Origin: a virus
Taxonomy: Duplodnaviria; Caudoviricetes
IMG/VR virus record: IMGVR_UViG_3300028805_000091
Location: 1 to 64,000 of that record
DNA: 64,000 bases
Reading direction: 5' to 3' (one strand)
Part shown: positions 2,655 to 44,934 of the stretch, piece after piece
Layout of the letters: each line of letters opens with the position of its first letter
How positions within the stretch are numbered: the first letter of the stretch is position 1
The notes under the pieces: model-generated
Databases searched by the model: none
Told to the model about the DNA's origin: nothing
The model's input: the letters and a program-made list of their open reading frames with translations, nothing else
Position numbers and translations under genes: made by a program

Positions 2655-2703
2655 TAATTATTTCCTTTCTTTTAATTAACTATAAAACATATATAGCATA
2701 ATT

Positions 2704-3717: not shown

Positions 3718-3718
3718 T

Positions 3719-21152: not shown

Positions 21153-21845
21153 ATGACTGTATATAAAGGAAATGTTCAGCAAGGTAATTTGAGTAAAGGA
21201 AGTAATACTTTTATTAAAGGGTATAAGGGAAATCAACTTATATATCAAAGTAGCTTACCTAGTGGAACAAAATTATTTGAATCAAGTACTCCAGGAAACT
21301 ATAGTATTAATTTAACAGAAAGTAGAAAGTATAGAATTGTATGTCAAGCAGCCGGAGGCGGTGGAGCCACAATTGGCTATACTAGTTTCTTTACAGATAT
21401 GTCAGCAGCCGGAGGCGGTGGTGGTTCAGGTTTTGATTGCATCATATATTTAGATAGTGGTAATTATGCTATTTCAATAGGTTCTGGAGGAACTAGTTAT
21501 ATAAATACAAGGACAGCCGGTTCTGGTGGAACAGGTGGCAATAGTTCATTTGGAAGTGCAATTTGTTATGGTGGGGAAGGCGGAAAAGCTAATTCTGGTT
21601 CAGTTTCTGGTACAGGAGGAGCTGGGGGAGCCGCGCCATATATACCTTATTCAATTGAGACGGCCCGAGTTAATGCTGCTGGTCAAGCAGGAGACGGAAC
21701 AGTAACAGGCTTTGTTTATGGAGGAATGGCAGCAGTATCTGATAATCCAGTTGGAGCAGGTAAAGGTGGGTCAGCTACATCAACGACTAATACATATGCT
21801 GCTCAGGCTGGAGCCAATGGATATGTTTCAGTTTTAACTGCTTAA
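21153..21845 (+). CDS. Glycine-rich tail fibre domain protein
   Basis: AAGGGG, GSGG, GGTGGNSSFG and AGANGYV motifs; start adjusted to MTVYKG. Confidence 0.7.
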   Translation: MTVYKGNVQQGNLSKGSNTFIKGYKGNQLIYQSSLPSGTKLFESSTPGNYSINLTESRKYRIVCQAAGGGGATIGYTSFFTDMSAAGGGGGSGFDCIIYLDSGNYAISIGSGGTSYINTRTAGSGGTGGNSSFGSAICYGGEGGKANSGSVSGTGGAGGAAPYIPYSIETARVNAAGQAGDGTVTGFVYGGMAAVSDNPVGAGKGGSATSTTNTYAAQAGANGYVSVLTA

Positions 21846-23144: not shown

Positions 23145-24080
23145 TTAGTCTACTAAATCGTCTTCATATAGAGCCTGTATGTCACAAAGCATACAGGCTT
23201 TTGAATTACTATAGCATTGATATAGTTTAGAATGTCCACAAGATAAAAATTCAGATCTTTCTTCTAAAAGTTTTGGCTGGTCTGATACGTCATTAAAATA
23301 TTTTGAAAACGGTGAATAACCATTATATTTATATGTCCCAGAATTCATTGTAGATAATATAAAGCTTCTGAATACATCATAATTAACTTCTTTTAAATAA
23401 GCTAAAAATTCAAATAAATCTTCTCTTTTAAAGTTAAAGTCCGATAATGGTGGTAAATTCTTATTAATGGGATGAGGATAAAGAAATTGTAAATTATTAC
23501 CTGGTATATTTTTATTTATAAAATCATTTACTTCAAATTTACCTTCTTTCCACATATCTATAACATATTGAGTCAATATCATTTGAACTCCAACTCTATA
23601 ATCATATCTATCGTGGAATTCTCGGATTGTTTTAAGGACCGTAGAAGCATCCTTTTCATTTTTGAAGCGATATTTAAGATCATAGGAAAAATTCATGTCT
23701 ACGAGCTTTATAGACGATTTATTGACTATTCTATCTACAACTTCATATAAAAAGGTAGGATTATATATTCCATTTGTAACAGTTGAATACCTTCTATTTA
23801 GATTTTGTGATACTTTTAATATTTTTTCTATGATATCGTCAACTAATTGTAAATAAGCTTCTTGTATTTCTCTATCTGTAATAAAGTATATTTCACCACC
23901 AAGTAATGAAATACCAGCCGAAAATTTATCTTTCCAGTCTATATAATCTATATTTTTTCTAATAGCCTCTATAGACTGTAATTGTCTTTGCTTATTTAAT
24001 ATATCTTTATCTTTTATTAAACAAAATTTACAAGCATTACTACAATTAGCCCATAAAGAATATTGTACCATATTAGACAT
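23145..24080 (-). CDS. Radical SAM protein (paralog 6, subtype A)
   Basis: WANCSNACKFC, LLGGE, SYDLKYRF, C-terminal CGH..CY..S..CMLCD. Confidence 0.85.
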   Translation of the reverse strand: MSNMVQYSLWANCSNACKFCLIKDKDILNKQRQLQSIEAIRKNIDYIDWKDKFSAGISLLGGEIYFITDREIQEAYLQLVDDIIEKILKVSQNLNRRYSTVTNGIYNPTFLYEVVDRIVNKSSIKLVDMNFSYDLKYRFKNEKDASTVLKTIREFHDRYDYRVGVQMILTQYVIDMWKEGKFEVNDFINKNIPGNNLQFLYPHPINKNLPPLSDFNFKREDLFEFLAYLKEVNYDVFRSFILSTMNSGTYKYNGYSPFSKYFNDVSDQPKLLEERSEFLSCGHSKLYQCYSNSKACMLCDIQALYEDDLVD

Positions 24081-24987
24081 CTAATTCTGCCTTAAATTTA
24101 GCTATATCATCCCACATTTTAATTTCTGAATCAACATATCCAGATTTATCATATAAACCAAAAGGTAATAATGTCTTATAATTTTTATTAGTAATTCTAT
24201 ATATAGTATTTATATAGATTAAATACATAGTATCAGCTTTTGTTTTACAATCAAATAATCTATTTATATCTATTACTTTATCTTCTATTACCGTTTTATT
24301 TAAAAATTTTAAAAAATCTTCTCTTTTAGGTAAAAAATTAGGTACTAATTGATTAAATTCTTTTTTATCTCTATAATCATATCCGATATGAGGAATATTA
24401 TAATCAACAGAAGTATTATATTTTGTAACAAAGTCTCTTATATCAAAATTTCCACTTAAAACATTTTCTATAAAATTCTGAGTTAATACAATTTGAGTAT
24501 GCATAGTTAACATAGGATATTGAGCATGCAATCCTAAAACATTCATTTCCCATAAATGCTTTTCTTTATTTGTCTTAAATCTACCTTCTATATCATATGA
24601 TGTATTAATACTTAATCTTCTTAAAACTTTAGCATCTATAAATTTCTGGATAAAATAATTAAATTCAGTATTTAAATCAAAAATAAGAGATGTAGCAATA
24701 TAAAATTTATATATTTTATCTTGTTTCATTCTATTTATGATTATATCAATAGCCTCATAAAACTTATCTCTTACTTCTTTTGTATCTAACTGACCACCAA
24801 AGAATTCACCACCAATAAATCCTATTTCATCATATTCTTCAACTTCATCACTATTCAAAACAAATAGTACTTTATCTAAAACAGTTAATTTTTGTTCTGT
24901 ATTAGATAATGGTTGATATTTATTAAAACAAAATTTACATCCAACATGACAATTCTTCCATAATTCAAATTGTAAAAACTTAGTCAT
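24073..24987 (-). CDS. Radical SAM protein (paralog 5, lacks C-terminal Cys motif)
   Basis: WKNCHVGCKFC, FIGGE, TSYDIEGRF. Confidence 0.85.
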   Translation of the reverse strand: MTKFLQFELWKNCHVGCKFCFNKYQPLSNTEQKLTVLDKVLFVLNSDEVEEYDEIGFIGGEFFGGQLDTKEVRDKFYEAIDIIINRMKQDKIYKFYIATSLIFDLNTEFNYFIQKFIDAKVLRRLSINTSYDIEGRFKTNKEKHLWEMNVLGLHAQYPMLTMHTQIVLTQNFIENVLSGNFDIRDFVTKYNTSVDYNIPHIGYDYRDKKEFNQLVPNFLPKREDFLKFLNKTVIEDKVIDINRLFDCKTKADTMYLIYINTIYRITNKNYKTLLPFGLYDKSGYVDSEIKMWDDIAKFKAELDV

Positions 24988-25994
24988 TATTCATCCTCCA
25001 TTTCTTCTAAAACAGAATCTAAAAATTTAATTCCCTTTATAAGTAAATCTGGTCTTTGTAAAAAAGTTGGTGCTCTGAATCTAATTATTCTATTATCATC
25101 TAATTCTATTTCACAAGTTTTTAGATTATTTCTTACATCTGGTGTTAACTTACCATCTATATCAGTAATATGAAAGAAATAAGGAGCGCAATTTTGTTCA
25201 TCATCTGTTTTAAAACCCTCTTTATTTATTAAATCTGAATAATAATGATTCATAACAGTCCTAAACATAAATAACTTCTCTCTACGCTTTAATATTTCTT
25301 GAAGCATATCATAATAAGTCATTCCCCAATTATATATTTTGTCTCCAAAAATCTTATTGTCCCCAATAGTTATTAAAATACCCATATTAAATCTTCTTAC
25401 GATAGCATGAGCTGTACCTATTACATAATCAAATATAGAATAATCCCGTGGTAAAAGAAACATCTCTTGTACATTATCTATTACTATTTTACATTCTATA
25501 TTATTTTTAATACAAAATTCTTTAATTTGTCTAAAAAAATCTTGTGGTGTGCTAAAACTATTTCTAGCGTGGGTACCTATAATATAAACAAATATTTTCT
25601 TATATTTTAAAATTTCATCAAAAGCTGCTTTAGCATTATTCTTTTTTAAATCAGGTTCTTGATATAAAAACACATTATCACATAAATCTAAATTTATATT
25701 AACGGACGGATGTTCAATATGAGAAGATACAACTAATGTATTTTCATCAACATATTCTTCAAAAAGTCTAGAAATAAAAGTTGTAGCGGAATCAGAAAAA
25801 CGAAGTTGTGCATTTTTCAATGTTAAATTACAGCAAGGCATTAAATCAAAATATTTTTCCGCCAGTGTATCAAAATATAATTCATCTATAACTGGTTTAT
25901 TCTTATTAGTATTATTTAAATATTCTAATGTCTTTTCATCGATAGGATCTTGATTTATCCACCAATCTATCATATCTCTATTCTTCATCTTCAA
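24987..25994 (-). CDS. PLP-dependent aminotransferase class V (NifS-like) fold protein, catalytic Lys apparently absent
   Basis: FSDSATTFI, SHIEHPSV, IDNVQ; GTAHA sits where NifS has SxHK. Confidence 0.6.
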   Translation of the reverse strand: MKMKNRDMIDWWINQDPIDEKTLEYLNNTNKNKPVIDELYFDTLAEKYFDLMPCCNLTLKNAQLRFSDSATTFISRLFEEYVDENTLVVSSHIEHPSVNINLDLCDNVFLYQEPDLKKNNAKAAFDEILKYKKIFVYIIGTHARNSFSTPQDFFRQIKEFCIKNNIECKIVIDNVQEMFLLPRDYSIFDYVIGTAHAIVRRFNMGILITIGDNKIFGDKIYNWGMTYYDMLQEILKRREKLFMFRTVMNHYYSDLINKEGFKTDDEQNCAPYFFHITDIDGKLTPDVRNNLKTCEIELDDNRIIRFRAPTFLQRPDLLIKGIKFLDSVLEEMEDE

Positions 25995-26913
25995 ATTCCT
26001 TTACTAATCTATTAATATCACATAACATACAATCATTACTATCTGCATAATGACTGAACCATTCTAAATGTCCACAAGGCATACATTTACCTTCTTCTCT
26101 ATCATCTTGTCTGTCATGATATATTCTTAATGAATCTCCCCCTAAATTTTCATATAAGCATTCAGCTCTATATTCACGATTAAACAAAATATCTAGCTTT
26201 TTATTTTTAATAATCCAAATAACAAAATTTAAAAAATCATTACGCTTAGGAAAAAATGTAGTCAATCCAGTCCTTTTTATAAAGCTATTCATATCTTTAT
26301 CAAGGGAACCTATATCTGGAGCTTTAAAATATATACTTGTCTTATAAGTCTGCTCAAAATTATCAAAAAATTCATTATTTTTATTCCATTCATCAAGTAA
26401 ATCTTGTGTTAATACAAAAGTTGTATTTATTTTTATATTTTGATAATTTTTATGTATATAATCTATATTATTTACCCAGTTAGCTTTTAATTGTTCTGTA
26501 TGAAATCTTCCTTTTAAATCATAAGATGTACAAATCCATACATTATCAAAAGCATTTAATATATTTAATGTATTTTTTAATTCTTCACAAATCGGTTTAG
26601 TAAGAGTAGTAGTAATCCAAAAATGGTCTATTTTATTACTTCGATAAAGGCTTTCTACACATCTTATAATTTCAATAAACTTTTCTTTTAATTTTAATGT
26701 ATCTAATTGTCCTTGAAAAAATTCACCACCAATTAAACCTAATGAATCATATTTAGTCCAAGTATTTTCATCTTTTATAATTTTTAATGTATTTTCTATA
26801 GCTTTTAACTTATATTCTTCTGGTAATTTAAAATTTTCTTCACCAATATAACAAAACTTACAATGCAAATCACATTGTCTCCACAATTCAAGCTGTAACA
26901 TTTTGTTATTCAT
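25978..26913 (-). CDS. Radical SAM protein (paralog 4)
   Basis: WRQCDLHCKFC, LIGGE, TSYDLKGRF, CGH...YADSNDCMLCD. Confidence 0.85.
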   Translation of the reverse strand: MNNKMLQLELWRQCDLHCKFCYIGEENFKLPEEYKLKAIENTLKIIKDENTWTKYDSLGLIGGEFFQGQLDTLKLKEKFIEIIRCVESLYRSNKIDHFWITTTLTKPICEELKNTLNILNAFDNVWICTSYDLKGRFHTEQLKANWVNNIDYIHKNYQNIKINTTFVLTQDLLDEWNKNNEFFDNFEQTYKTSIYFKAPDIGSLDKDMNSFIKRTGLTTFFPKRNDFLNFVIWIIKNKKLDILFNREYRAECLYENLGGDSLRIYHDRQDDREEGKCMPCGHLEWFSHYADSNDCMLCDINRLVKEFEDEE

Positions 26914-27796
26914 CTAATATTTTCCTATGTTTTAATATATCACATATAATACATTCTTTACTATCAGCATAACATTCTCTATATAATTTATCATGTCCAC
27001 ATGATGCTATTTCATCTTGTATTTCTTCTATATATAAAGAATTAAGTCTACTTGTAACCTCTTCAGTAGGTAAAGTATGTATTTCACAAGCTCTTTTTTC
27101 TAAATTAAATAAGTTATTATATAGAATAGGATTTACTACCTTTAATTTGTCTAAAAATTTGAAAAAATTTACTCTTGTTGGAAAAAAATCCTTTAAATTT
27201 TCATTAGAATGACTATAAGACCCAGAAGGACGTATTAAATCAATATCATAATACATTATTTTATCAATAACTTCTTTTTTATTTTCTAAAAATGCTTTTA
27301 TTAAGGCTTCTGTTAAAATAGTTTCATAATGTAGCTCACAGTTATAAGCCATTACTAAATCTACATTATTTTGCCATATTTTTTTATTAACTTCATTAAA
27401 TCTACCTACATAATCCCAAGATGTATTAATAGAAAAACAGTTCATTAATCTATTTTCTCTAAATAATTCTAAAATATCTTGCAAAATATAGTTTTTATTC
27501 AATAAAGCTGTTACCAAATAAAATTTTTTAAGCTTTTTATCTTTAATAAGTTGAATTATCTTTTCTATAAGTTGTAAAAAAGCATTTTTTATATCACCTA
27601 TAATGTCCTCTGTTAATAATTCACCACCAATTAAAGTCATTTCATCAAAATCAGACCAATTTATTGTATCTAATCGTCTAATAGCTTTATTTATAAGCTC
27701 AACTTTATTTAATTTAAATGATTTAAATTCTCTGATAGCACAGAAAGAACAACTATTTGGACAATCTAACCATAATTCAAACTGTAATATCTTCAT
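26906..27796 (-). CDS. Radical SAM protein (paralog 3)
   Basis: WLDCPNSCSFC, LIGGE, TSWDYVGRF, CGH...CYADSKECIICD; start adjusted to MKILQ (GAGG RBS). Confidence 0.85.
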   Translation of the reverse strand: MKILQFELWLDCPNSCSFCAIREFKSFKLNKVELINKAIRRLDTINWSDFDEMTLIGGELLTEDIIGDIKNAFLQLIEKIIQLIKDKKLKKFYLVTALLNKNYILQDILELFRENRLMNCFSINTSWDYVGRFNEVNKKIWQNNVDLVMAYNCELHYETILTEALIKAFLENKKEVIDKIMYYDIDLIRPSGSYSHSNENLKDFFPTRVNFFKFLDKLKVVNPILYNNLFNLEKRACEIHTLPTEEVTSRLNSLYIEEIQDEIASCGHDKLYRECYADSKECIICDILKHRKILDE

Positions 27797-27804
27797 ATTA
27801 AACC

Positions 27805-28710
27805 TCAATAAAAATTTAAAAGGTCACATAACATACATTTATCTGAATCTGAATAACACTGATATAACTTTGAATGTCCACAACTATTATTCTTATGTTC
27901 TTTGTCTGAAGATAATCTTGGTTTTTGTTTAATATTATTTGAATTAGTCTCTAATAAACCTGTATATTTAAATCTAGATGAATTTATTACCGATGAAACA
28001 AATGCTTCAAAGTTTCTTGAATAATTTTCTCGTAAAAATTTACAAACTTCTAATAATGACTCTCTTTTAAAATTAAAATCATTTAATTTAATTCCAGTAG
28101 CAATAGGATGCGGATAAAGAAATGCTAAAACATTACCTGGTACAACGCTATTTTCAAATTCTTCTATTTTAAATATACCATTTAATATCATATCAATTAA
28201 ATACTGTGTTAATATCATTTGTACATTAACTACATAATCATATTTAACATGAAAAGCATTTATATTATCTATTACTCTTTGAGCATCAGATTGTGTTTTA
28301 AAACGATATTTAAGATCATATGAAAAATTTATATCTATTCTACTCTTATCTATACCTTTTTCTAAAAATCTATCAATTACTTTATATAAAAAAGTAGGAT
28401 CATATAATCCATTTGTAACAGTAGAATATACAGTATATTCATTAGGTAACATTACTTTATCTATAATGTCATCTATGAGTAATATAAATTCATCTTGAAG
28501 ATTTTTGTCTGTAATAAAATAAACTTCACCACCAAGTAATGAAATTCCATCTTTAAATTTATCTTGCCAATCTACATAATTGAGATTAGCTCTAATATTT
28601 CTTATACGTTTTATTTGCTTATTTAATGAAATAGGAATTCGTTCTGTACGTAAACAGAATTGACAAGCATTACAACAATTAGGCCAAATGCCATATTGTA
28701 CCATAGACAT
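27805..28710 (-). CDS. Radical SAM protein (paralog 2, subtype A)
   Basis: WPNCCNACQFC, LLGGE, SYDLKYRF, CGHSKLYQCYSDSDKCMLCD. Confidence 0.85.
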   Translation of the reverse strand: MSMVQYGIWPNCCNACQFCLRTERIPISLNKQIKRIRNIRANLNYVDWQDKFKDGISLLGGEVYFITDKNLQDEFILLIDDIIDKVMLPNEYTVYSTVTNGLYDPTFLYKVIDRFLEKGIDKSRIDINFSYDLKYRFKTQSDAQRVIDNINAFHVKYDYVVNVQMILTQYLIDMILNGIFKIEEFENSVVPGNVLAFLYPHPIATGIKLNDFNFKRESLLEVCKFLRENYSRNFEAFVSSVINSSRFKYTGLLETNSNNIKQKPRLSSDKEHKNNSCGHSKLYQCYSDSDKCMLCDLLNFY

Positions 28711-28738
28711 GCTTAATTTCCCCCTTTCAGCAAATAAT

Positions 28739-29461
28739 TTAATCTAATTTCATATAGCCTATAAACATACTAGAGCTACTAGAAGAACTACTCGAACACG
28801 AAGATGAAGATGAACAACATGAAGATGAAGAACTACTAGAATAAGCTGTCATTGTATAAACAATTTGATGTGTTTTAGCTGTATCATTTATAATTTTTTC
28901 TAAGTCTTTTAAAAACTCTTTTACATCAGCTGAAGAAATTAATTCGCCTTCAGGAGGTGTTGTTACAGGTTGATAATCACATACACTTTTATACATTCTG
29001 AGTTTTTTTGTTTCTGGAGTTAAAGTGTCAGTAGGACTAGCTACTCCCCATTTTTGTCCTGTTACAAATAAGATATTACTAGTACAAAAGGCTGCTACAT
29101 TATTCCAAAAATTAATTACACCTCTTGTAGTAATTGGTTTATCAGACTTAGTATCGATACTTCTAGCTTGCATAAAACTATTAAAATCACTAGTAACTTT
29201 ACTTACACTCACAACTGGAACAACAGTACTACTTACAATACTAGCTTTAACTCCACAAGCAGCACTAGTAGCACTACCACTTGGATTAAAAGCATTAACA
29301 GTAGATTTAACTACATCTTTATTTGTCCAGCTACTTTTAAAATATGCTGGAACACTACTACTATAATCACTACCAATATTAGTACAACTAGTTTTTAACC
29401 AATTGAGAAAGGTTGAAGTTAATTCACTATATGTTATAATGTTATTAGGATTGATCGCCAT
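28739..29461 (-). CDS. Protein with Ser/Cys-rich C-terminal tract (candidate radical SAM substrate)
   Basis: Ends Y-S7-CC-S5-C-S9-MFIGYMKLD; start adjusted to MAINPN (GAGG RBS). Confidence 0.8.
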   Translation of the reverse strand: MAINPNNIITYSELTSTFLNWLKTSCTNIGSDYSSSVPAYFKSSWTNKDVVKSTVNAFNPSGSATSAACGVKASIVSSTVVPVVSVSKVTSDFNSFMQARSIDTKSDKPITTRGVINFWNNVAAFCTSNILFVTGQKWGVASPTDTLTPETKKLRMYKSVCDYQPVTTPPEGELISSADVKEFLKDLEKIINDTAKTHQIVYTMTAYSSSSSSSCCSSSSSCSSSSSSSSSMFIGYMKLD

Positions 29462-29939
29462 GACTAATATTATCCTCTTCAAGTAATCTTATGTACATAT
29501 CAAATTGCCTACAAAAAGAATATACTATTTCATAATTATCTGCATATAAAACTTCTTGTCCACAAGGTGTATATTTCTTAAAAAGCTTTCCGATAGTTTG
29601 AAAATCTAATAAGAAAAGTACCTTTTTATATCTATCAAAAATAGTCTTAGTTACTTTTTCATCATGTGTTGTACAATGCATAAAACATGATAAATAAATA
29701 CCTAAAAGGTTATTAACATAATTATCCAATTCTTTTTTAATAGCATCTTTTATGTCTATAAATTCCATGGTAGAATTAAACATTACAGATTCATTACTAA
29801 AAAAATCATCAGTAAAACTATTATTACCCTTTATTAAAAGAAAAACATTTAATGCTATTATTGTGTCAACTTCTTCTTCGTTATTAAAAAAGTCTAAAAA
29901 TAACTTTATTTTTTCTTCTTTTGTAAGCTCTTTATACAT
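29445..29939 (-). CDS. Hypothetical protein, first gene of the radical SAM operon
   Basis: AGGAG RBS; 3' end overlaps the start of the Ser/Cys-tail gene. Confidence 0.7.
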   Translation of the reverse strand: MYKELTKEEKIKLFLDFFNNEEEVDTIIALNVFLLIKGNNSFTDDFFSNESVMFNSTMEFIDIKDAIKKELDNYVNNLLGIYLSCFMHCTTHDEKVTKTIFDRYKKVLFLLDFQTIGKLFKKYTPCGQEVLYADNYEIVYSFCRQFDMYIRLLEEDNISHGDQS

Positions 29940-29962
29940 TTTTTAATTCTCCTTTCTACCTT

Positions 29963-29974
29963 ATAGTATAGAAC
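29963..29974 (-). promoter_or_regulatory. Candidate late promoter (GTTCTA motif)
   Basis: GTTCTATACTAT about 30 nt upstream of the start at 29939; the same hexamer precedes many structural genes. Confidence 0.5.
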
Positions 29975-29989
29975 TTTTATATAAATGTG

Positions 29990-30868
29990 CTAATCCAACA
30001 ATTGTTCTTTTAATCGTTTACAATCACATACAAAACACTCATCAGAATCACTATAACATCGTTTAAAATTCTCTGAATGCCCACATAAACTCTTATCAGA
30101 TGAAACATCATCCAATACACCATTATCACTATCATATTTATGTAATATGATTTTTTGATTTAAAAGAAAATTATTACAATATTTTAATAAATATCCCGGC
30201 ATTTGTTCATTTAATTTAATCAATGTATTAAATACTTTTTCTCTTGTTGGAGCGCCTATTACAGTACCAAATTTTATATATGGAATAGTATTTACCATTA
30301 CTTGATGTCTACTTTCATATGTACTTATATCAAAACTATTATCTAAAACATCATTACAAAAATCATCTATTAAAATAATGTTTACATATATAGGTAAATC
30401 TGGATATTTATGTCGTATTTCGTATAGATTATCATAAAATAACTCATCAGAACTATTAGTACCATCATTTCTAAATCTACCATAATTATCACCAGATGTA
30501 GTAAAATGAATACGCCTAATTAAATCAAATTCTTTTGCTTTATCTAATATTGGTACTAATTGAGTATTTATGTCATATAAAATGTTTGTATTAATATATA
30601 ATTGATCTATTTCATTTCTTTTCATTTTATCAAAAGTCAAATCATATAAATCATTTAAACTTTTAATAATAACTTGATTGGTTTCAGCTAAAGTTTCACC
30701 ACCAACATATAAAACATGTGTATCAAATAAATCTGATACAGTTTCTTTAACTAACATTAATGATTCGAGTTTATGCGCTACCGTTTGTTGCTTTTCTTTT
30801 CTTTGCCAGCAAAATTTACAATCATTATTACAGTTATTCCATAAAATAAATTCATTTATTGGTAGCAT
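29990..30868 (-). CDS. Radical SAM protein (paralog 1)
   Basis: WNNCNNDCKFC, YVGGE, TSGDNYGRF, CGH...CYSDSDECFVCD. Confidence 0.85.
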   Translation of the reverse strand: MLPINEFILWNNCNNDCKFCWQRKEKQQTVAHKLESLMLVKETVSDLFDTHVLYVGGETLAETNQVIIKSLNDLYDLTFDKMKRNEIDQLYINTNILYDINTQLVPILDKAKEFDLIRRIHFTTSGDNYGRFRNDGTNSSDELFYDNLYEIRHKYPDLPIYVNIILIDDFCNDVLDNSFDISTYESRHQVMVNTIPYIKFGTVIGAPTREKVFNTLIKLNEQMPGYLLKYCNNFLLNQKIILHKYDSDNGVLDDVSSDKSLCGHSENFKRCYSDSDECFVCDCKRLKEQLLD

Positions 30869-30876
30869 TTATCCCC

Positions 30877-31344
30877 CTATTTTATTTTAAGTGTAACTGA
30901 TATAGATCCTTTTGCTGAATTTTTTCTAACTGTAACACTTAATTTTTTCATTTCTGAGCGTATAATTTCTTTCCAAAAATCTACAACTATATTAGCACAT
31001 TTATTTGAGCTATATTTTATCGTAAAAGTATGTTTTGTAAAGCCATTTTTCTGCAAACATGTCTCTAAAAGGTCTTTAAACTCATTTGACATTTCTGTTA
31101 TGGTATGTGAACGCCAATCTAAAATTGTTGGTAAAGGACATTTTTGCACTAATTCATTTAATTCTCTATGGATATTATAATCAACAATATATTTAGCCAA
31201 ATCATCTTTATTTGCAATAATTCTATTATTTGCACTCTCTAATTGATTTATTGTATATTGAACAGCTTCCGCTACTTTTTCATACCATTCTTCTGTAAAT
31301 ATCGATTCGCAAATATCTTCATTTTGAAAAGGATTATGCTCCAT
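30877..31344 (-). CDS. Hypothetical protein
   Basis: 155-aa ORF upstream of radical SAM paralog 1. Confidence 0.7.
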   Translation of the reverse strand: MEHNPFQNEDICESIFTEEWYEKVAEAVQYTINQLESANNRIIANKDDLAKYIVDYNIHRELNELVQKCPLPTILDWRSHTITEMSNEFKDLLETCLQKNGFTKHTFTIKYSSNKCANIVVDFWKEIIRSEMKKLSVTVRKNSAKGSISVTLKIK

Positions 31345-31417: not shown

Positions 31418-32227
31418 CTATTTTTCCGTTATTATTGATTTTATTAAATTAAGATTTTTAGTACGATCCTCTATACCGTTTAAACCACCATTAATTCTTT
31501 TAGTAATAGTTTTTATATCATCTTTATCAGCAAATGTATTAAGATTATTTTTATTCCAAAACCAGCATGCTGTTTTTACACATACTTCTGGATCAGATGT
31601 AATTAAATCAGGGTTTTTAACTAAGTCTAAATTAAGATCTTGACCACAAGCTTTATAATTATTAGTACCTGTAAGCTGAATAAGCCCACGACCTCTATAA
31701 CGCCAACCATCACCACTCATTTCATTACCATTTCCCATACGATTAGCATATACTTTGTTAGCTATTTTCTCTGGCTGTCTAGCATAAGCATTAGCTTCGA
31801 CATCAGTCTTAAAATATTTTCCAAATACTGACTTCAAAGCTTTAGCTGAATAATTTAAATTTTCACTTTTATATTTAAAATGTCCAGATTCATGAATAAC
31901 TTGTGCTAAAAAATGACTTATACGTAAAGGTGTATTAATTTCATATTGTGGTAATACCTTATTTAAAGCCTCATAATAATAATCACAATCAGCCCTATTT
32001 ACATTACCATTCATTTTATATAATTCTTCACGTAAGAATAACCAAGCCTCTTTTGACTTTTCTTTTTTATTTTTCTCACTAATATCTACTTTTTGAGATT
32101 GAATGGCCGGTTTTGAAGTATTAATATCTACTTTTTCAACCTTTTCATTCTTTTTTTCTTCTTTTTTCTTAAACCAACCAAACATTATACTCACCAGCCT
32201 ATTAAATATCATTTTATATTTTTCCAA
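31418..32227 (-). CDS. Glycoside hydrolase family 19 endolysin
   Basis: FLAQVIHESG, ENLNYS, YANRMGNG, DGWRYRGRGLIQLTG, TKRINGG. Confidence 0.92.
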   Translation of the reverse strand: MEKYKMIFNRLVSIMFGWFKKKEEKKNEKVEKVDINTSKPAIQSQKVDISEKNKKEKSKEAWLFLREELYKMNGNVNRADCDYYYEALNKVLPQYEINTPLRISHFLAQVIHESGHFKYKSENLNYSAKALKSVFGKYFKTDVEANAYARQPEKIANKVYANRMGNGNEMSGDGWRYRGRGLIQLTGTNNYKACGQDLNLDLVKNPDLITSDPEVCVKTACWFWNKNNLNTFADKDDIKTITKRINGGLNGIEDRTKNLNLIKSIITEK

Positions 32228-33138: not shown

Positions 33139-36100
33139 CTATACCTCTTTAGCCATCATAATTGAAGCATCTAAAATAGGCATAATATACATTTGACTTG
33201 CTTTTGCTAAAATAGCATCGCGTCTGTCAATATTATCTTCAGGTAATTCTTCAGCATCCATTACAAAGTCAATACTATCTGGCAAATCATTTACTTTTGA
33301 AAGGAAATCAGCTAAATCAACTGGATCATCAGCTTCCATATTACTTGTCATATCATCAATATATTTGTCTGAATCCCAATCAATATTTGTTAAAGTAATA
33401 TGATATTTACCTTTTTCTTCATTTAATGGTTTATCAATAAATGGATCAGAAGCTTCACCTGGCTTATTATACATTATTTCTGACATATTATTAGATTCAT
33501 TCTTTATACCATCTATATCTTCTTGACTAATATATTCAACCGATATTTGATCTCTAACATCTGCCAATTCTTTATTTAGTTCTTCTTCTGATTCAAATGG
33601 ACCAGTAATACCAATACCCATAGCACCTGCATACCAACCTGGTTCAATGTCTTCATAATGAGGAGCTTCTTCATCAAATTCAAGTCTACCTTCTCTTGAC
33701 TGAATACCTCTTGCACAATGATTACATAACCAACCTAATTTACTTTCATGTCTCATTTCAGATTTTGGTAATCTATCTCCACACCAAGCACAGATAGCAC
33801 TATTTTCTAAATCATATGATAATGAAGGATTATCTTCATTTTCCCAATTACCTTGATCTATTCCACTATAATGATGATCCCACTCTTCAGTACCTTCATC
33901 TAATTCATAAACATTTCTTTCGAAATCTTTATCTTCCATATCTTTTGAAGTTTCATCCCTTTTCCATACTCTTACAGAATATACATCACCAAAAGTTCCA
34001 ATTCTATTCTCTAATTTCTGAGCAGCCTTATCATTAATAAGTTTATTACCTTCAGGAGTAATAATTAAATTTTCTGGATCATCAACACCTAATTCTTCAG
34101 GATATAAAAATACACGGATAAATTCAGGTTTACCACCATTAAATATTGATTGGCCACTTGTTGGATCGGCATTATTATAAATACCCTCTTCATTACCAAA
34201 GTCTAAATTATTAAATAATACAGCTATTTTCCAATCAGCTTTATTATTAGCTTCTTCGATTGGATCACCATCATACATTATATTTGGGGTATTTTTAATA
34301 ATTTCTTTTCTAAAGACTTCTAATTGATCACAAGCATCTTGAGTTGATAATTTTTCATCACGCCAATCACTGAATATAGACCAAATATTATCCATATCTT
34401 CACTACTTATATGACCACCATTTATAAGAAAATCATGAATACAACTCATATATTGCATTGGATCATTATATCGATTACCATCTTCACTAAGTAATACATC
34501 ACCACCAAATTTACCTTGCTCAATACCAGCTTTAGCAACTGCAGCTTGTTCAGGAGTATCAAATTCTTTTTCTACTTTATTATTATCATCAACTTCCATA
34601 GAAAGTTTATTACCATCTTGCTCTAAATCACCAGCAGCTTCCATTTTAACTGACTGCTGCATTCCATTTGTTTTGAATGATCTACTAGCTGGATCATAAA
34701 TTGATTCCTCTCCTGTAGAAGTATCACGTAATTTAATCATTACTTGAGCTACAGAATCTTGTTTAGATTTCATATCCCATAAGTTAGCTATTTCATTTAA
34801 AATAGATTCTGTCTCAACAGCAGATACTGGTACAGTTTCAGAAGAATGGCCATTTTTACCATCTATTTCAACAATAGCTTCATAACGTGTATTACTACCA
34901 TTTTCTTCTGTCATCGGAGCTGCAATATCACTATTTTCTACTTTAACACCTGCATTTTCGGCAGCTTGAATATTAACATCATCTGGAGCAGATATATCAG
35001 CATTATCTTTTTTATAATATTTTTCTGTTTTTAATATGCCCATAGTTTCAAGAATCTTTTCAATACCAGACAAATGAACTACACCAGACTCTTCTTTACC
35101 TTTAACAAAATGTATAGCATCTTTAGGGTCTTCAACAAAATCTATAGCATTACCATTCATTGCGACAAACTTAGGTTTACTATTCTCATCTGTTTCAGTA
35201 TCTTCTTTAACACGTAATACAAATTGTTTACCTTCTTTAGGATCTTCCTCTTTAGTAGCTTCTGTCATAACTGATTCCTCAACCGGTGCTGTTCTCATAT
35301 ATTCAAGTAAATATTCATATGGAATATTTTCATTTTGTTCACAGAACTTACGACAAGCTTGTTCAAGTGTTAATCCTTCATTCCACATTAAACTGATAAC
35401 TGCATCATGAATCCAATCAACAGATTGCGGAGTAAATTCATGTACATCATATTCAGTATCTTTACTTTCTGACATATTATTACCATTAATATATGCTTCC
35501 AATTTATCTAACATAGCATCTAAAGATTCATCTGTTTTTCTAGGATCTAATACTGCTGCAACATAAGCATCCATCATTTCTTGAGCATCTTCTCTTTCTT
35601 GACCAGAAAGCTTATTGTTATTAATCATATTATCAAGATAATCGTAAACTTTAGCACATCTTTGAGTACGTATATCTGTTGCTTCTTTCATAGAAACAGA
35701 TTCACCCCATAATTTCTTTTGGACTTCAGCTGCAATATCACCTAAAGCAATTTTAGTATCTAATGCACTATTTTCACCACGTTCAAATTTAGCAAAAATA
35801 TTCTCTGCTTGTTGGCGTAAAATATCTGATTCTGGTAAATTACTAATAATGAAATTATATTGTCTTTGTGCCATATTTTCAGCCACTTTTTCAGGACTAC
35901 CGACATGATTTGCGTTATATTCACCAGAAATTGTACCCATAGAATCATTCATTTCAGATTCTGGAATATAATCTTCATTCATATCTTGACCATTTGCATA
36001 ATTTAAATAAGTCTGATCAACTCCAGCATCAACCAAAGACTTATAAGAACGTTGCCATTCCATAGCATTATGATCATCACTATTACGAAGCTCGGCAGAT

Positions 36101-37131
36101 ACTCTCCATAACTCTTTTTCATCAGGACCAGTTATTTCAACACCCTTAATGTCAACTATTTTCTTTAAGCCAAGATTTTTATCATCTTCATTTAAAACAT
36201 CATCTGTATCATTTTCAACTGATTCTTTAGGTTGTTCCTCTTTAACTACTTCAATTGTAACAGAATCAATATCAGCTTTACCATTTAAAATGGCTCTTTT
36301 AGCCATACCCAAAGCTTGATCTAATTCAGAAACTTCATCTTCTGTTTCAGTTTCTAATGTTACCATAGTTGTTTCTGCACCAGTTTTTGGATCAACTTCT
36401 GAATCCAACTTAGTAGATGTTTTTACAACCGAACCAAATTGAGCATCATCTATGTTTTTAGATAACATTAAAGCGTCATCTATATTACGTACTACATTTG
36501 TAGCAGAAGAAGATACAACAAAAGTCTCTGTAAGAGGTTTAGAAGTAATTTCAACTGATTCATTAACCGGTGTAGATAAAAATGTACCACTTGATGGTAA
36601 ACCAACAACATCAGTACCTAGAAATTCATATTCAGTAACAACACCACTATTATCACAAGAACCTAAACCACGTATAGAAATACCTGCTCCAAATCCAGCC
36701 AAAATTAAAGATTGTAATTGAGCTCCTTGTTCACTCTTATCATCTAAAACTTCCCAATCTTCATATAAAACATTATAACGTTCTCTTTTACCTTCAATCT
36801 CAATTTCTACATTTTTAATATAGGCATTTACGACAGCATGAGAAACATCTGAAGGAATGCAAAAACTTGATTCTGGATGGTCTTTACATTGACTTAAGCA
36901 CTGTTTAGTCTTAAACTTAGAAGCTGCTTCAGCAATAGCTTTACGCATAATATCAGTAGGATATATACGTCCATTCTGATTTTTTCTATCTAATACAGTA
37001 CACGGAATGTTTTTAACAACTAAAATACCACCTTTACCGGCAGATAAACGCAATGATTCTTTTAAATCATGGCTTACTTCAAAGCAATTTATAAAATCGC
37101 CTGCTTCAACGAGTAATTTTTTCTCAGACAT
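33139..37131 (-). CDS. Prohead protease (T4 gp21-like) fused to a long acidic extension
   Basis: NQNGRIYP, KDHP, VSH, GISIRGLGS and DVVGLPS in the first ~190 aa; CAWC...CNHC Zn finger near the C-terminus. Confidence 0.8.
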   Translation of the reverse strand: MSEKKLLVEAGDFINCFEVSHDLKESLRLSAGKGGILVVKNIPCTVLDRKNQNGRIYPTDIMRKAIAEAASKFKTKQCLSQCKDHPESSFCIPSDVSHAVVNAYIKNVEIEIEGKRERYNVLYEDWEVLDDKSEQGAQLQSLILAGFGAGISIRGLGSCDNSGVVTEYEFLGTDVVGLPSSGTFLSTPVNESVEITSKPLTETFVVSSSATNVVRNIDDALMLSKNIDDAQFGSVVKTSTKLDSEVDPKTGAETTMVTLETETEDEVSELDQALGMAKRAILNGKADIDSVTIEVVKEEQPKESVENDTDDVLNEDDKNLGLKKIVDIKGVEITGPDEKELWRVSAELRNSDDHNAMEWQRSYKSLVDAGVDQTYLNYANGQDMNEDYIPESEMNDSMGTISGEYNANHVGSPEKVAENMAQRQYNFIISNLPESDILRQQAENIFAKFERGENSALDTKIALGDIAAEVQKKLWGESVSMKEATDIRTQRCAKVYDYLDNMINNNKLSGQEREDAQEMMDAYVAAVLDPRKTDESLDAMLDKLEAYINGNNMSESKDTEYDVHEFTPQSVDWIHDAVISLMWNEGLTLEQACRKFCEQNENIPYEYLLEYMRTAPVEESVMTEATKEEDPKEGKQFVLRVKEDTETDENSKPKFVAMNGNAIDFVEDPKDAIHFVKGKEESGVVHLSGIEKILETMGILKTEKYYKKDNADISAPDDVNIQAAENAGVKVENSDIAAPMTEENGSNTRYEAIVEIDGKNGHSSETVPVSAVETESILNEIANLWDMKSKQDSVAQVMIKLRDTSTGEESIYDPASRSFKTNGMQQSVKMEAAGDLEQDGNKLSMEVDDNNKVEKEFDTPEQAAVAKAGIEQGKFGGDVLLSEDGNRYNDPMQYMSCIHDFLINGGHISSEDMDNIWSIFSDWRDEKLSTQDACDQLEVFRKEIIKNTPNIMYDGDPIEEANNKADWKIAVLFNNLDFGNEEGIYNNADPTSGQSIFNGGKPEFIRVFLYPEELGVDDPENLIITPEGNKLINDKAAQKLENRIGTFGDVYSVRVWKRDETSKDMEDKDFERNVYELDEGTEEWDHHYSGIDQGNWENEDNPSLSYDLENSAICAWCGDRLPKSEMRHESKLGWLCNHCARGIQSREGRLEFDEEAPHYEDIEPGWYAGAMGIGITGPFESEEELNKELADVRDQISVEYISQEDIDGIKNESNNMSEIMYNKPGEASDPFIDKPLNEEKGKYHITLTNIDWDSDKYIDDMTSNMEADDPVDLADFLSKVNDLPDSIDFVMDAEELPEDNIDRRDAILAKASQMYIMPILDASIMMAKEV

Positions 37132-43900: not shown

Positions 43901-44934
43901 AAATCTTTTTTAGCTCTATTTAATAAAGCATCATCAACTGGTTCTTCTGAATTACGACTCTGCAACATATTTGAAAGTTGTCTTTTTTGACTTTGATATG
44001 CTGTATTTGCAGTAGAATATGCTGATTTATCAGATTTAATAAAATACTCTGGATCTTGTTGAAATTTTTGTGTAAAAGTAAAATAACGAGTAAATATATC
44101 ATTTTTTACTTCTGGAATAGCATTTGTATAATCATTATCAATAACTATTGCAAATTTATTATATTTTGATAATGGCTCTCTACTATCATTCAATTTAACA
44201 GCTAAACTACGATAAAATAAAGGGTTAAATAATTTATCGCGATTATATTTTAAAATACTTTTATCTGATAACTTTTGAGGAGATAATTCTGGATCAAAAC
44301 TCATTTTACTAGTAAATAATTGAGTTTTTGGAAAATATTCTACATCTTTATGAATTAATTCGCCATTTTCATCAACAGGATATACTTTTACATCATGAGG
44401 TCTAGTTAAACCAGCTTCTTCAGCCTTTGACATTACTTCTTTAATTTTTGGTTCAATCTCTTCAAAACCTTCTGTTAATTCAACGAAACCTTCTACTAAC
44501 ATATCTTCATCATTTTCAGTAGATTCGAAACTAGCTTTCTTACCCATTGTCTGTGGATCTCCCTTACGTCCTTCACGGTTAATATATGGTAAATCATGTA
44601 AAAGTTTTTTATAATACTTTGATAATACATTATTATTCATCCACTTAGATACAGCTGTACTAAGCATTAAATATGCATCAATTGGATTATCCGCATTTTC
44701 TTGAATCCAATCCCAAATTTTTGTTTCATAAGCTCTACGTAAATATTTATCTGCTTTAGTCATTTTATGATACATATCTTTTTTATCACGAAATAGACCT
44801 GTTATGACGCTAAAAGCATTCTTTTTAGTATCAAAAACAATTCCAGTATAACTTTCTAAATTTGACTTAGCTTTTACATCATCTGCTTCTGTAAAAGTAT
44901 CTCTTAACATATTCGGAAATAAAGTAATGGACAT
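40996..44934 (-). CDS. 1312-aa putative virion/internal protein with Pol-beta superfamily nucleotidyltransferase domain
   Basis: DIYFTGSEANYNYNDNSDIDLHL (hGS...DxD) plus a later VEVG strand; many xxE-(S/A/G) motifs. Confidence 0.7.
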   Translation of the reverse strand: MSITLFPNMLRDTFTEADDVKAKSNLESYTGIVFDTKKNAFSVITGLFRDKKDMYHKMTKADKYLRRAYETKIWDWIQENADNPIDAYLMLSTAVSKWMNNNVLSKYYKKLLHDLPYINREGRKGDPQTMGKKASFESTENDEDMLVEGFVELTEGFEEIEPKIKEVMSKAEEAGLTRPHDVKVYPVDENGELIHKDVEYFPKTQLFTSKMSFDPELSPQKLSDKSILKYNRDKLFNPLFYRSLAVKLNDSREPLSKYNKFAIVIDNDYTNAIPEVKNDIFTRYFTFTQKFQQDPEYFIKSDKSAYSTANTAYQSQKRQLSNMLQSRNSEEPVDDALLNRAKKDFVKSRSTLSRIAKMDADEFELSPEDQEKVKELRNKISALANEPLPDNIEKGSDEAWNWNNERLTKIKELNSQIKDFRKEKADYHNSIYGNTTANKEKAREKHWNLTKPISYGNPIHNSGAENEFIDKHDKREKEDRWLNSQLNKAIRNGDFRKERELRNILKKESVQTEAYVNDGASALKYSTDNMDKQNVSYVMEGQTHEELNQELFDGKTLKSDVRDALLDIANTFKANLKLDIEPIDIYFTGSEANYNYNDNSDIDLHLVYDFENAGMNAELLSKYLQTAKKVFNNQHDITIKGLPVEVGAENTSEPLVTSGIYSVLNDSWVIEPENAGKELIEPEDDYYMAVKTALNDIINSKDKNMLANGIEAVWNMRKSALADGDAEEGGELGYMNNLFKKLRADGILERLKQAYYNAESEELSLESLEEGEFDSIDSITYDENDLFEKSKNEIIDGLMAKYAGNIDETLNKLEDVLANADDGYREAHPQISEAIEELRNKNSFGDRCKFIFESALRGLKEWTKKTPAGTKPESYVNHLKDIAKVDEMLSLTYMGIHPDFKYKKPYLAYDKKDGSEGILQLGGIDEGDDPQNVLCYDIDIVEADDGKYRPTIVDRFEMPTYDFVKVTEDPRNKEMHDKILRNEPDLDDLLIEIEERARNINEAYRNWCIENWDKYDLNTLPARYRVALYHDIAHYGWRPELALKKWEGSRKKKEQLPGYHPTKGKKKTESVEEIEEAFGEREKQDYVKASENGRYVTAVLDRYLHIDPKLLQVPFAVEPDNSKWKREQDKEPTRYYVIVGVERTAKPEDVNTVYITQTDNKGKTIKGKRAEPVPAGFIQAAMAWSATHNKLNDPSRMKKRALMQLTSDRGRSRISKVDSRGTYITLSDDEVEAVLKIMEKEDPRFENLVKYYNQNPNDPAVIMALKAFDPDFASYVKHMSNGYKLFVPYGGKPEEPVKFKSNQPLRDLRRWG

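Follow-up and report, generated by a model that had tools for sequence, protein, structure and literature searches.

A conserved phage cassette of radical-SAM enzymes and a protein with a Ser/Cys-only tail

Why would a phage carry six related radical-SAM (rSAM) enzyme genes packed around a single protein whose C-terminus is made almost entirely of serine and cysteine? We addressed this question in an uncultured gut or rumen jumbo phage, using a 64,000-nucleotide stretch of DNA (positions 1 to 64,000 of IMG/VR record IMGVR_UViG_3300028805_000091; hereafter the window). An earlier note, made from the sequence alone, had described the cluster as a candidate new system in which several rSAM maturases modify the tail of a probably virion-associated protein. 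The observation itself is confirmed. We found ten tightly packed genes on the minus strand, listed here in the order of transcription.

Table. Positions in the window of the cluster genes and their sequence features.
Feature	Coordinates	Strand	Description
orf155	30877-31344	-	155-aa ORF of unknown function, not part of the conserved core
rSAM1	29990-30868	-	orthogroup OG1; Cx3Cx2C, GGE and C-terminal Cys/His knot
GTTCTA	29969-29974	-	promoter-like motif, 35 nt upstream of orf164
orf164	29445-29939	-	164-aa conserved helper of unknown fold; overlaps the start of the tailed gene by 17 nt
Tailed protein	28739-29461	-	240 aa; roughly 206-aa N-domain of unknown fold, Ser/Cys tract, hydrophobic end
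Ser/Cys-only tract	28769-28840	-	S7-CC-S5-C-S9, 24 residues; proposed site of modification
C-terminal end	28742-28768	-	MFIGYMKLD, conserved and hydrophobic; proposed docking or recognition element
rSAM2	27805-28710	-	orthogroup OG2/6
rSAM3	26906-27808	-	rare branch, sister to OG2/6; knot present
rSAM4	25978-26913	-	orthogroup OG4; second knot Cys replaced by His
PLP-fold protein	24987-25994	-	predicted class-V aminotransferase or cysteine-desulfurase fold, no Schiff-base lysine; accessory gene
rSAM5	24073-24987	-	orthogroup OG5; Cx3Cx2C and GGE, no C-terminal knot
rSAM6	23145-24080	-	orthogroup OG2/6, best-conserved member; the protein modelled

From orf164 to rSAM6 the gene junctions are -17, +28, -4, -8, -17, -1 and -8 nt, and no terminator-like site lies inside the cluster. 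The tailed gene begins with ATG, and an in-frame TTG lies at 29482. An alignment of the six rSAMs confirmed the motifs that the note had described: (L/I)W..C-x3-C-x-F-C, GGE, [TF]S.D...RF and [KT]R in all six, and a C-terminal C-G-H...[C/H]-Y-x-[DN]-S-x2-C-x2-C-D motif in all but rSAM5. The Ser/Cys tract is encoded by TCT, TCA, TCG, AGT and AGC serine codons, drawn from both codon boxes, and is the only Ser/Cys run longer than 6 residues in any of the six frames of the window.

Four corrections apply. The note placed the GTTCTA motif ahead of the whole operon, whereas the motif lies inside the cluster, after rSAM1 and not ahead of orf155 and rSAM1. The motif itself looks real: of its 18 copies in the window, 10 lie 16-79 nt upstream of ORFs of at least 120 aa on the same strand, including virion genes (33139-37131, 40996-44934 and 49895-51040 are among these ORFs). 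The label "NifS-like" rests only on a predicted-structure match, in which the ESM Atlas structure gives TM 0.73-0.75 over about 310 residues; Pfam and a PDB sequence profile find nothing. The note also mentioned multi-rSAM clusters in Campylobacter phages, but tblastn found no sequence link to Campylobacter or any other GenBank phage, and this remark is not supported by sequence. Finally, all six rSAMs score below the gathering score of Pfam's Radical_SAM family (15-28 bits against 29.5). We found no paper and no GenBank phage record describing this system, which fits no described pathway.

To determine if the rSAM genes and the tailed gene belong together, we examined related loci, since the note had named rSAM arrays without a Ser/Cys-rich partner as evidence that would count against it. 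Of 26 IMG/VR phage loci found with the OG2/6 rSAM profile, 25 carry at least one Ser/Cys-tailed gene and an orf164 homologue within 10 kb; the exception is a truncated contig, cut about 600 nt upstream. All 6 loci found with the tail profile carry 4-8 rSAMs. Of 10 MAG loci, seven carry a tail nearby, two of the other three have tail-family genes elsewhere in their genomes, and the third is a short fragment. The one array that seemed to lack a tail (locus L055 in our numbering) has tail-family genes elsewhere in its genome, which, if they lie on the same contig, would be about 5 kb past the stretch examined. Gene order varies between lineages, yet tails, helper and rSAMs stay contiguous, and in loci L017/L040 and L020/L041 tail genes are interspersed among duplicated rSAM sets. 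The co-occurrence predicted by the note therefore holds. An orf164 homologue lies next to the tailed gene in 33 of 37 non-redundant loci, whereas the PLP-fold protein is present in 19 of 37. Homologues of orf155 were found only in the closest relatives (L015/L046 and L016/L035), and it gave no family hit. Portal proteins 36-72% identical show that the module is a hallmark of one clade of 227-314-kb phages.

The tail shows signs of selection. The tailed family comprises 364 representative clusters at 50% identity (E<=1e-10). In 114 diverged homologues from different clusters the tract contains 1944 Ser, 393 Cys and only 11 other residues (99.5% Ser/Cys). It is 9-34 residues long, and 112 of the 114 tracts have at least one Cys. 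Cys is enriched at tract positions 1-4 (27-38%) and depleted in the last five (6-10%), with preferred spacings of 1, 2, 4 and 5. The tract is followed by a near-fixed end, with the family consensus hydrophobic-F-I-A-Y-M-x-[IL], in which position 5 is limited to Y/F/H/W. An AF2 model of the tailed protein was only moderate (pLDDT 64) and gave no fold match. For orf164 there is no Pfam, PHROG or PDB match, and the Atlas model has low confidence.

The enzymes are old. In a tree of 134 family rSAMs representing 28 loci, all but one OG3 member keep Cx3Cx2C, and GGE is invariant. There are four orthogroups, found in 21 to 28 of the 28 loci, with support 97-100. OG1 has 25 leaves from 25 loci (support 100), OG4 has 41 leaves from 27 loci (support 97) and OG5 has 25 leaves from 21 loci (support 97), while the rSAM3 branch has only 3 leaves (support 92-93). 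rSAM2 and rSAM6 share the OG2/6 clade and are 51% identical, but rSAM2 has its own closest partner in another locus. A homologue search with rSAM4 gave 154 metagenomic hits. The knot is absent from OG5 as a whole (present in 0 of 25, with a median of 1 Cys in the last 45 residues), and most OG5 members have an extra conserved Cys in the C-T-S-x-D strand. The AF2 model of rSAM6 is confident (pLDDT 93.1, pTM 0.90) and matches protein and peptide maturases over its full length. However, anSME, SuiB, viperin, ChlB and SkfB tie in the fold search (Z 13.4-14.0; ChlB 13.6), so that the chemistry stays open and nucleotide chemistry is not structurally excluded. In the PLP-fold protein, D-x-x-Q ... T-[ACS]-H-A is invariant in 4 homologues where desulfurases such as IscS have S-x-H-K.

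The cluster sits between tail-fibre-type genes (BppL_N, Gly_rich_2) and the endolysin, scaffold and protease genes, and the N-domain of the tail family occurs fused to the tail-fibre-type domain Gly_rich_2. These results support the placement among late and tail-fibre genes proposed in the note, although the evidence for virion association is indirect.

Taken together, we think it more likely than not, though far from certain, that this is a phage-encoded, late-expressed system for maturation of the tail of a tail-fibre-associated protein. In this view the GTTCTA motif, shared with virion genes, would drive orf164, the tailed protein and the downstream enzymes as one tightly coupled unit. The hydrophobic octapeptide, probably helped by orf164, would dock the tail onto the maturases. 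The rSAMs, of four ancient orthogroups, each with an intact SAM-cluster site and three with a small Cys/His metal knot, would abstract hydrogen atoms from the C-alpha or C-beta of Ser and Cys and install several different modifications along the tract. Tentatively, the most likely chemistry within this reading is the formation of Cys-sulfur-to-carbon thioether rings at the CSC, CSSSC and CSSSSC motifs, with a second reaction on the serines, either epimerisation or oxidation, giving a rigid, protease-resistant appendage. The lysine-less PLP-fold protein would be an accessory and not a core enzyme. The gene set, its motifs, its conservation and linkage across the clade, the rSAM fold and the purity of the tract are established by our analysis, whereas the pairing of enzymes with substrate, the roles of orf164 and the octapeptide, the late timing, the virion association and all of the chemistry, including whether the tract is modified at all, are inferred. 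The interpretation in the note is thus partly supported; its suggested end products (adhesin, armour or metal-binding fibre) remain inference. Several features argue for caution. The enzymes have no RRE domain and no full SPASM motif, both of which most RiPP rSAM maturases carry. A Ser-rich tract could simply be a flexible linker, the linkage could reflect co-assembly instead of catalysis, and the model does not explain why four or more different rSAMs would be needed for a two-letter substrate.

Other explanations are possible but appear unlikely. The roughly 200-aa N-domain could serve as a large leader, as in the proteusins, with the modified tract and hydrophobic end cut off and released as a small bioactive peptide, for example one that acts on membranes during lysis or against competitors. 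Large leaders combined with several rSAM maturases have a precedent in polytheonamide, the core-like region is C-terminal and ends in a hydrophobic segment, and in the window the cluster lies directly downstream of the endolysin gene (31418-32227). However, no conserved protease or exporter lies in the module in 37 loci, and a poly-Ser core is hydrophilic. The N-domain also has tailless paralogues next door, which, with the Gly-rich fusions, points to a structural protein and not a leader. We consider it equally unlikely that the array acts on a non-protein substrate, such as a nucleotide, DNA base, cofactor or lipid, with the tailed protein only a co-regulated structural neighbour or a scaffold for that chemistry. 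Viperin is the commonest weak NCBIfam and PADLOC hit (its N-terminal region, in 20 of 44 members), phage DNA hypermodification pathways are reported to use rSAM and PLP enzymes (PMC5889632, PMC8989533), and some related loci hold a carbamoyltransferase, a MiaB-like enzyme or a PAPS reductase. On the other hand, no nucleotide-metabolism gene is conserved in the module, the viperin sequence matches cover only the generic N-terminal cluster region, and the near-absolute linkage of rSAMs to tailed genes and orf164, which survives rearrangement, is hard to explain in this way, as is the co-duplication of tails with rSAM sets.

Least likely, in our view, the tail is functional as encoded, as a flexible Ser linker with Cys ligands for a metal or Fe-S site or as a strand-complementation anchor, and the rSAMs, the helper and the PLP-fold protein use it as a partner or cluster carrier without modifying it. 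The clustering of Cys at the domain-proximal start of the tract, the frequent presence of a predicted cysteine-desulfurase-like fold in the module, and a hydrophobic end that looks like a beta-strand able to dock into another protein would fit this. However, natural linkers mix Gly, Thr, Pro, Ala and Asn, whereas 99.5% of the 2348 tract residues are Ser or Cys. The PLP-fold protein lacks the catalytic Lys and a conserved Cys loop and is absent from about half the loci, and four conserved, apparently active rSAM types are not needed for cluster delivery.

Of the systems already described, the anaerobic sulfatase-maturing enzyme (anSMEcpe/AtsB; PDB 4k36-4k39) is the top structural match of the rSAM6 model (Z 14.0, 280 residues aligned over 1-311; Foldseek E 6e-7). 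It acts on a folded protein or on peptides and accepts either Ser or Cys at the target site. However, it is a single enzyme with a full SPASM domain holding two auxiliary clusters, and it targets one residue in a (C/S)-x-(P/A)-x-R motif, whereas here four to six paralogues with at most a 4-Cys/His knot accompany a Ser/Cys homopolymer without that motif. Identity is 14%, and there is no NCBIfam hit to the family. The epipeptide enzyme YydG/EpeE, acting on YydF/EpeX in Bacillus subtilis (PDB 8ai1-8ai6), is likewise a small (about 320-aa) rSAM without an RRE, which abstracts C-alpha hydrogens of a ribosomal peptide; it gives a structural match (Z 11.9) and weak TIGR04078 hits in 2 of 44 members. 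It ranks below anSME, SuiB, viperin and ChlB and is a one-enzyme, one-short-peptide system. The hydrogen-donor Cys of EpeE could not be mapped here, and OG2/6 has no conserved Cys outside the two metal motifs.

The sactipeptide and ranthipeptide maturases (CteB/SCIFF 5wgg, SkfB 6efn, PapB/freyrasin) form thioether rings in Cys-containing low-complexity cores with short Cys spacings, and the CSSSC and CSSSSC spacings of the tails recall C-x3-D type repeats. They give structural matches of Z 13.2-13.4 (CteB 13.2) and weak PapB, StsB and CcpM hits. However, those enzymes have an N-terminal RRE and a full SPASM domain, one enzyme installs all the links, and their substrates are short leader-core peptides and not the tail of a 200-aa folded protein. 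Viperin and the prokaryotic viperins (PDB 5vsl, 6q2p) are similar in size, lack an RRE and match the fold with Z 13.6, but they act on nucleoside triphosphates, occur as single genes and have no protein partner; sequence scores are about 20 bits against a cut-off of 180, and the match covers only 1-274 of the model, not the C-terminal knot. In the proteusins (polytheonamide: PoyA with the rSAMs PoyB, PoyC and PoyD), a large N-terminal region and a C-terminal core are combined with several different rSAM enzymes that install many modifications on one ribosomal product. The Poy rSAMs, however, include B12-dependent methylases and a distinct epimerase family, no sequence relationship to them was detected here, and their leader is NHLP-type and is cleaved off.

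The ten genes of the cluster lie on the minus strand in the transcription order orf155, rSAM1, orf164, the Ser/Cys-tailed protein, rSAM2, rSAM3, rSAM4, a 335-aa protein, rSAM5 and rSAM6. From orf164 onward the genes overlap or abut, with junctions of -17, +28, -4, -8, -17, -1 and -8 nt, and no terminator-like site was found inside. The window is the first 64 kb of an 84.9-kb IMG/VR record, which CheckV rates about 35% complete and whose G+C content is about 27%. Phage genes surround the cluster, including those for a portal, the phage's own GroEL-type chaperonin, an endolysin and two giant late proteins, one of which carries a fused protease domain. On the opposite strand, converging on the cluster, are genes with BppL_N, tail-fibre and Gly_rich_2 signatures. 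Features of the window and of related loci for which positions are cited are collected in the table.

Positions of features in the window and in two related loci (L055, L009)
Feature	Location	Strand	Remark
Region with ClpP gene, distant rSAM and 232-aa ORF	window 2067-4417	-	232-aa ORF of no assigned function
ClpP protease gene	window 2067-2654	-	
Distant rSAM, SPASM-like Cys-rich C-terminus	window 2704-3735	-	between the ClpP gene and the 232-aa ORF
Gene of the tail-fibre region	window 21153-21845		carries Gly_rich_2 (PF21722)
Ser/Cys-tailed protein	window 28739-29461	-	
Endolysin	window 31418-32227		
Giant late protein, 1330 aa	window 33139-37131	-	N-terminal prohead-protease domain; protease-scaffold gene
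Giant late protein, 1312 aa	window 40996-44934	-	
381-aa gene	window 49895-51040		
GroEL-type chaperonin	window 51182-52834	-	
Degenerate rSAM-like gene	window 60622-61530	+	GTTCTA lies 16 nt upstream of the preceding ORF (60066)
GTTCTA motif, examples among 18 sites	window 29974, 37179, 44973, 51076	-	
GTTCTA motif, examples among 18 sites	window 15173, 17115, 17902, 22528, 60050	+	
NodU/CmcH-type carbamoyltransferase	L055 5347-6972		also in five other loci
MiaB-like methylthiotransferase or PAPS-reductase-like gene	L009 8395-10014 and 19327-20118		

The gene array and the motifs described in the earlier note are real. All six rSAMs share (L/I)W..C-x3-C-x-F-C, GGE, [TF]S.D...RF and a [KT]R motif, and five of them end in C-G-H-x5-[C/H]-Y-x-[DN]-S-x2-C-x2-C-D, which rSAM5 lacks. 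The tract S7-CC-S5-C-S9 of the tailed protein is encoded by five different Ser codons drawn from both codon boxes and is the only long Ser/Cys run in any frame of the window; it is therefore not a slippage repeat. The window also holds two more distant relatives of the rSAMs. The SPASM-like rSAM next to the ClpP gene passes the Pfam threshold (30.8 bits), and its homologues sit inside the rSAM arrays of other phage loci (L017, L021, L028, L047-L049). The other is a degenerate copy that keeps GGE but has lost the cysteines of Cx3Cx2C; short homologues of it lie next to the arrays in L012, L021, L024, L025, L048 and L050.

The earlier note had placed a late-type GTTCTA motif ahead of the operon. 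The motif lies 35 nt upstream of orf164, so that it sits inside the cluster, after rSAM1, and not at its head. Of its 18 copies in the window, 10 lie 16-79 nt upstream of ORFs of at least 120 aa, including the protease-scaffold gene, the 1312-aa gene and the 381-aa gene. It looks like a phage promoter element, and its placement supports the idea of shared late regulation. A sigma-70 promoter scan found fewer sites than in shuffled sequence.

A search with rSAM4 found 154 homologues, all of them metagenomic and several on 200-240-kb contigs. The first two contexts examined already showed an orf164 homologue, one or two proteins ending in a Ser/Cys tract plus a FIAYFN-type end, and five or six rSAMs. 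We then tested the linkage from both sides. From the tail side, a tail-family profile retrieved 6 IMG/VR loci, all of which have orf164 and 4-8 rSAMs. From the rSAM side, a profile of OG2/6, the best-conserved rSAM orthogroup, retrieved 26 IMG/VR loci, and in 25 of them at least one tailed gene and an orf164 homologue lie within 10 kb; the exception is a contig cut about 600 nt upstream of the array. Among species-representative genomes the same profile found 10 loci, all in gut, rumen, chicken or rabbit MAGs of inconsistent taxonomy, the habitat being inferred only from MAG titles. Several of these contigs are 245-283 kb long; those of L047, L050 and L055 are filed in GTDB as MAGs of Bacilli or "uncultured bacterium" and are probably jumbo-phage genomes binned as bacteria. 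Seven of the 10 loci have tails nearby. Of the other three, L055 was considered as a counter-example and rejected, because two tail-family genes occur elsewhere in its genome (if they lie on the same contig, they are about 5 kb beyond the stretch examined); a second has tail-family genes on other fragments; and the third is a short fragment. The occurrence of homologous rSAM arrays without any Ser/Cys-rich partner, which would have counted against the interpretation in the earlier note, was thus looked for and not found.

In 37 non-redundant loci, the rSAM family (201 genes) occurs in 37, the orf164 family in 33, the tail family (by BLAST clustering) in 30, the PLP-fold protein in 19, a tail-fibre IMC/Peptidase_G2 domain gene in 13 and a carbamoyltransferase in 6. 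Some related modules also add a MiaB-like methylthiotransferase or a PAPS-reductase-like gene; neither these nor the carbamoyltransferase is in this window. Portal proteins of four module-bearing genomes, rated 95-100% complete and 227-314 kb long, are 36-72% identical to the window's portal. The module is therefore a hallmark of one broad jumbo-phage clade.

An exhaustive profile search for the tail family found 364 representative clusters at E<=1e-10, and among the best 150 of these, 114 carry a full tail. Their tracts contain 1944 Ser, 393 Cys and only 11 other residues, are 9-34 residues long (median 20), and have a median of 3 Cys, with only two tracts having none. The C-terminal end is usually eight residues, with the consensus hydrophobic-F-I-A-Y-M-x-[IL], and position 5 is limited to Y/F/H/W. 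Cys is enriched at the first four tract positions (27-38%) and depleted in the last five (6-10%), and spacings of 1, 2, 4 and 5 are preferred. A plain flexible linker would not be held to two residue types across proteins whose N-domains share about 20-40% identity. Within-genome tail paralogues share their C-terminal end slightly more than between-genome pairs of equal N-domain divergence (0.71 against 0.59, one-sided p 0.02); however, the pairs are not independent and the difference is too weak to carry weight.

Many loci also have a tailless paralogue next door. In some family members (P0186, P0236 and P0143) the N-domain is fused to, or interrupted by, a tail-fibre-type Gly_rich_2 domain, which takes the place of the tail in P0186 and is inserted in the N-domain, with the tail kept, in P0236. 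The same domain occurs in a neighbouring gene of the window's tail-fibre region. This is the best evidence available here that the protein belongs to the tail-fibre apparatus, and it is indirect. The AF2 model of the N-domain is moderate (pLDDT 64) and matches no solved or viral predicted fold: Foldseek against PDB and BFVD gave no hit at E<=0.001, and the best VIA-wide score was Z 5.3 over 58 residues. Given the quality of the model, we do not claim that the fold is new. PDB sequence profiles for the tail family, the PLP-fold family, the orf164 family and OG2/6 gave nothing beyond low-complexity noise.

A FastTree of 134 rSAM family members resolves four orthogroups: OG1 (25 leaves from 25 loci, support 100), OG2/6 (32 leaves from 28 loci, support 100), OG5 (25 leaves from 21 loci, support 97) and OG4 (41 leaves from 27 loci, support 97). 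The window has one OG1 member (rSAM1), one OG4 (rSAM4), one OG5 (rSAM5) and two OG2/6 members (rSAM2 and rSAM6, 51% identical), as well as rSAM3, a rare sister branch of OG2/6. The Cx3Cx2C motif that binds the SAM [4Fe-4S] cluster is kept in all 134 members except one OG3 member, and hence in every member of the four main orthogroups, and the SAM-binding motif GGE is invariant. In P0031, a 484-aa homologue of rSAM4 belonging to OG4, a mini-intein of about 137 aa (weak Intein_splicing and Hint hits) is inserted directly after the third Cys of Cx3Cx2C; inteins usually sit in essential, conserved sites.

The six proteins score 15.2-28.4 bits against Pfam's Radical_SAM model (PF04055), below its gathering threshold of 29.5 bits. 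The family is too diverged for the curated model, so its membership of the superfamily rests on motifs and fold. The AF2 model of rSAM6 is confident (pLDDT 93.1, pTM 0.90) and aligns to 38 solved chains, almost all rSAM enzymes, at Z>=8, in keeping with the partial (beta/alpha)6 TIM-barrel fold of the superfamily. Its best matches tie within one Z unit: anSMEcpe at 14.0 (280 residues, full length), SuiB at 13.9, viperin at 13.6, ChlB at 13.6, SkfB at 13.4, CteB at 13.2 and MoaA at 12.8, with EpeE lower, at 11.9. This places the family in the SPASM/twitch/viperin neighbourhood, but does not discriminate peptide chemistry from nucleotide chemistry.

The 335-aa protein has no Pfam or PDB sequence match. 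The ESM Atlas model of this very sequence, on which the fold assignment relies, superposes on cysteine-desulfurase (IscS) and Aminotran_5 (PF00266) clusters at TM 0.73-0.75 over about 310 residues, consistent with a type I PLP fold, although this compares a predicted structure with predicted structures. About 22 residues after a D-x-x-Q motif, all four homologues have T-[ACS]-H-A where desulfurases have S-x-H-K with its Schiff-base lysine, and no C-terminal Cys is conserved that could form a persulfide loop. It is thus a lysine-less protein with a predicted PLP fold and, being present in only about half the loci, an accessory. For orf164, the Atlas model has a pLDDT of 0.43 and gave no usable neighbours.

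Four lines of evidence point to the same reading: the linkage survives rearrangement, tails are co-duplicated with rSAM sets (in the locus pairs L017/L040 and L020/L041), the tract is almost purely Ser and Cys, and four conserved, apparently active rSAM types recur, each in 21 to 28 of the 28 loci represented in the tree. The best reading is that the enzymes act on the tail, with the hydrophobic octapeptide, and probably orf164, providing recognition. The interpretation offered in the earlier note is thus supported in part. Gene content, motifs, linkage, tract composition and the predicted rSAM fold come directly from the analysis, while modification of the tail, the recognition roles, late timing, association with the virion and the chemistry are inferred from sequence and models alone. 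We lean towards thioether ring formation from the Cys residues plus a second reaction on the serines (epimerisation or oxidation), since Cys is nearly always present and sits at preferred short spacings, and since the closest structural relatives include thioether-forming and Ser/Cys-oxidising enzymes. Even within the main reading, however, we regard this specific chemistry as less likely than not.

Three alternatives remain: that a proteusin-like peptide is released, that the enzymes act on a non-protein substrate, and that the tail is an unmodified metal-binding element or linker. A bolder possibility, which we regard as less likely than not, is that the four orthogroups together turn a genetically encoded Ser/Cys homopolymer, at the end of a tail-fibre-associated virion protein, into a kind of post-translational structure not yet described, for example a ladder of thioether or ether rings with D-residues or aldehydes. 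In this view gut jumbo phages would use it as a protease-proof or covalently reactive tether during assembly or adsorption.

Maturation of ribosomal peptides and proteins by rSAM enzymes is established in bacteria, but a conserved multi-enzyme version in viruses, acting on one of the phage's own folded and probably structural proteins, has not been described in the papers that could be searched. The putative substrate is unusually simple, with only two residue types and a fixed eight-residue cap, and the enzymes are small and fall into four distinct types. This makes the system easy to test by co-expression and mass spectrometry, and it may yield new radical chemistry on Ser and Cys. The module also marks a whole clade of 227-314-kb gut and rumen phages with no cultured member, whose biology, including how they build or protect their host-recognition apparatus in an anaerobic, protease-rich habitat, is otherwise unknown. 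Full-text literature searches found no description of the system, and none of the recent gut jumbo-phage papers listed mentions radical SAM; the rSAM of Fusobacterium phage FNU1 is a single unrelated gene. Megablast of the cluster against 50,697 GenBank phage records, and tblastn of rSAM4, rSAM6 and the tail N-domain, gave no match, and the link to multi-rSAM clusters of Campylobacter phages suggested in the earlier note was therefore dropped.

The system works like an rSAM maturase-substrate pair of the anSME, sactipeptide and ranthipeptide, epipeptide or proteusin type, but it lacks the defining features of each family. Searches of PHROGs, NCBIfam and PADLOC gave only weak hits to the generic rSAM N-terminal region, with scores far below every curated family cut-off. 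Against the viperin family (NF038283), for which a full-length match above 180 bits including the C-terminal nucleotide-binding extension is expected, scores are about 16-22 bits, mostly over the first 60-100 residues. Only 2 of 44 members hit the YydG/EpeE peptide epimerases (TIGR04078) at all, with a best E of 1.7e-4, far below the cut-off, and the EpeE fold match ranks below five other families. The rSAM motif starts at residue 13, so there is no fused N-terminal PqqD-like RRE; for the adjacent orf164, with only its low-confidence model, a role as a discrete PqqD-like partner is neither supported nor excluded. In place of the (C/S)-x-(P/A)-x-R motif targeted by anSME/AtsB, the tail offers only Ser and Cys and then a hydrophobic octapeptide, without any Pro/Ala-x-Arg context. 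Finally, where the SPASM maturases (anSME, CteB, SuiB, PqqE) carry a C-terminal seven-Cys motif (CX9-15GX4C ... CX2CX5CX3C ... C) binding two auxiliary [4Fe-4S] clusters, five of the six paralogues have only C-x-H-x5-[C/H]-x6-C-x2-C, a compact knot of four Cys or His ligands that may be either a one-cluster twitch-like site or a zinc knuckle, and rSAM5 and the rest of OG5 have nothing in its place.
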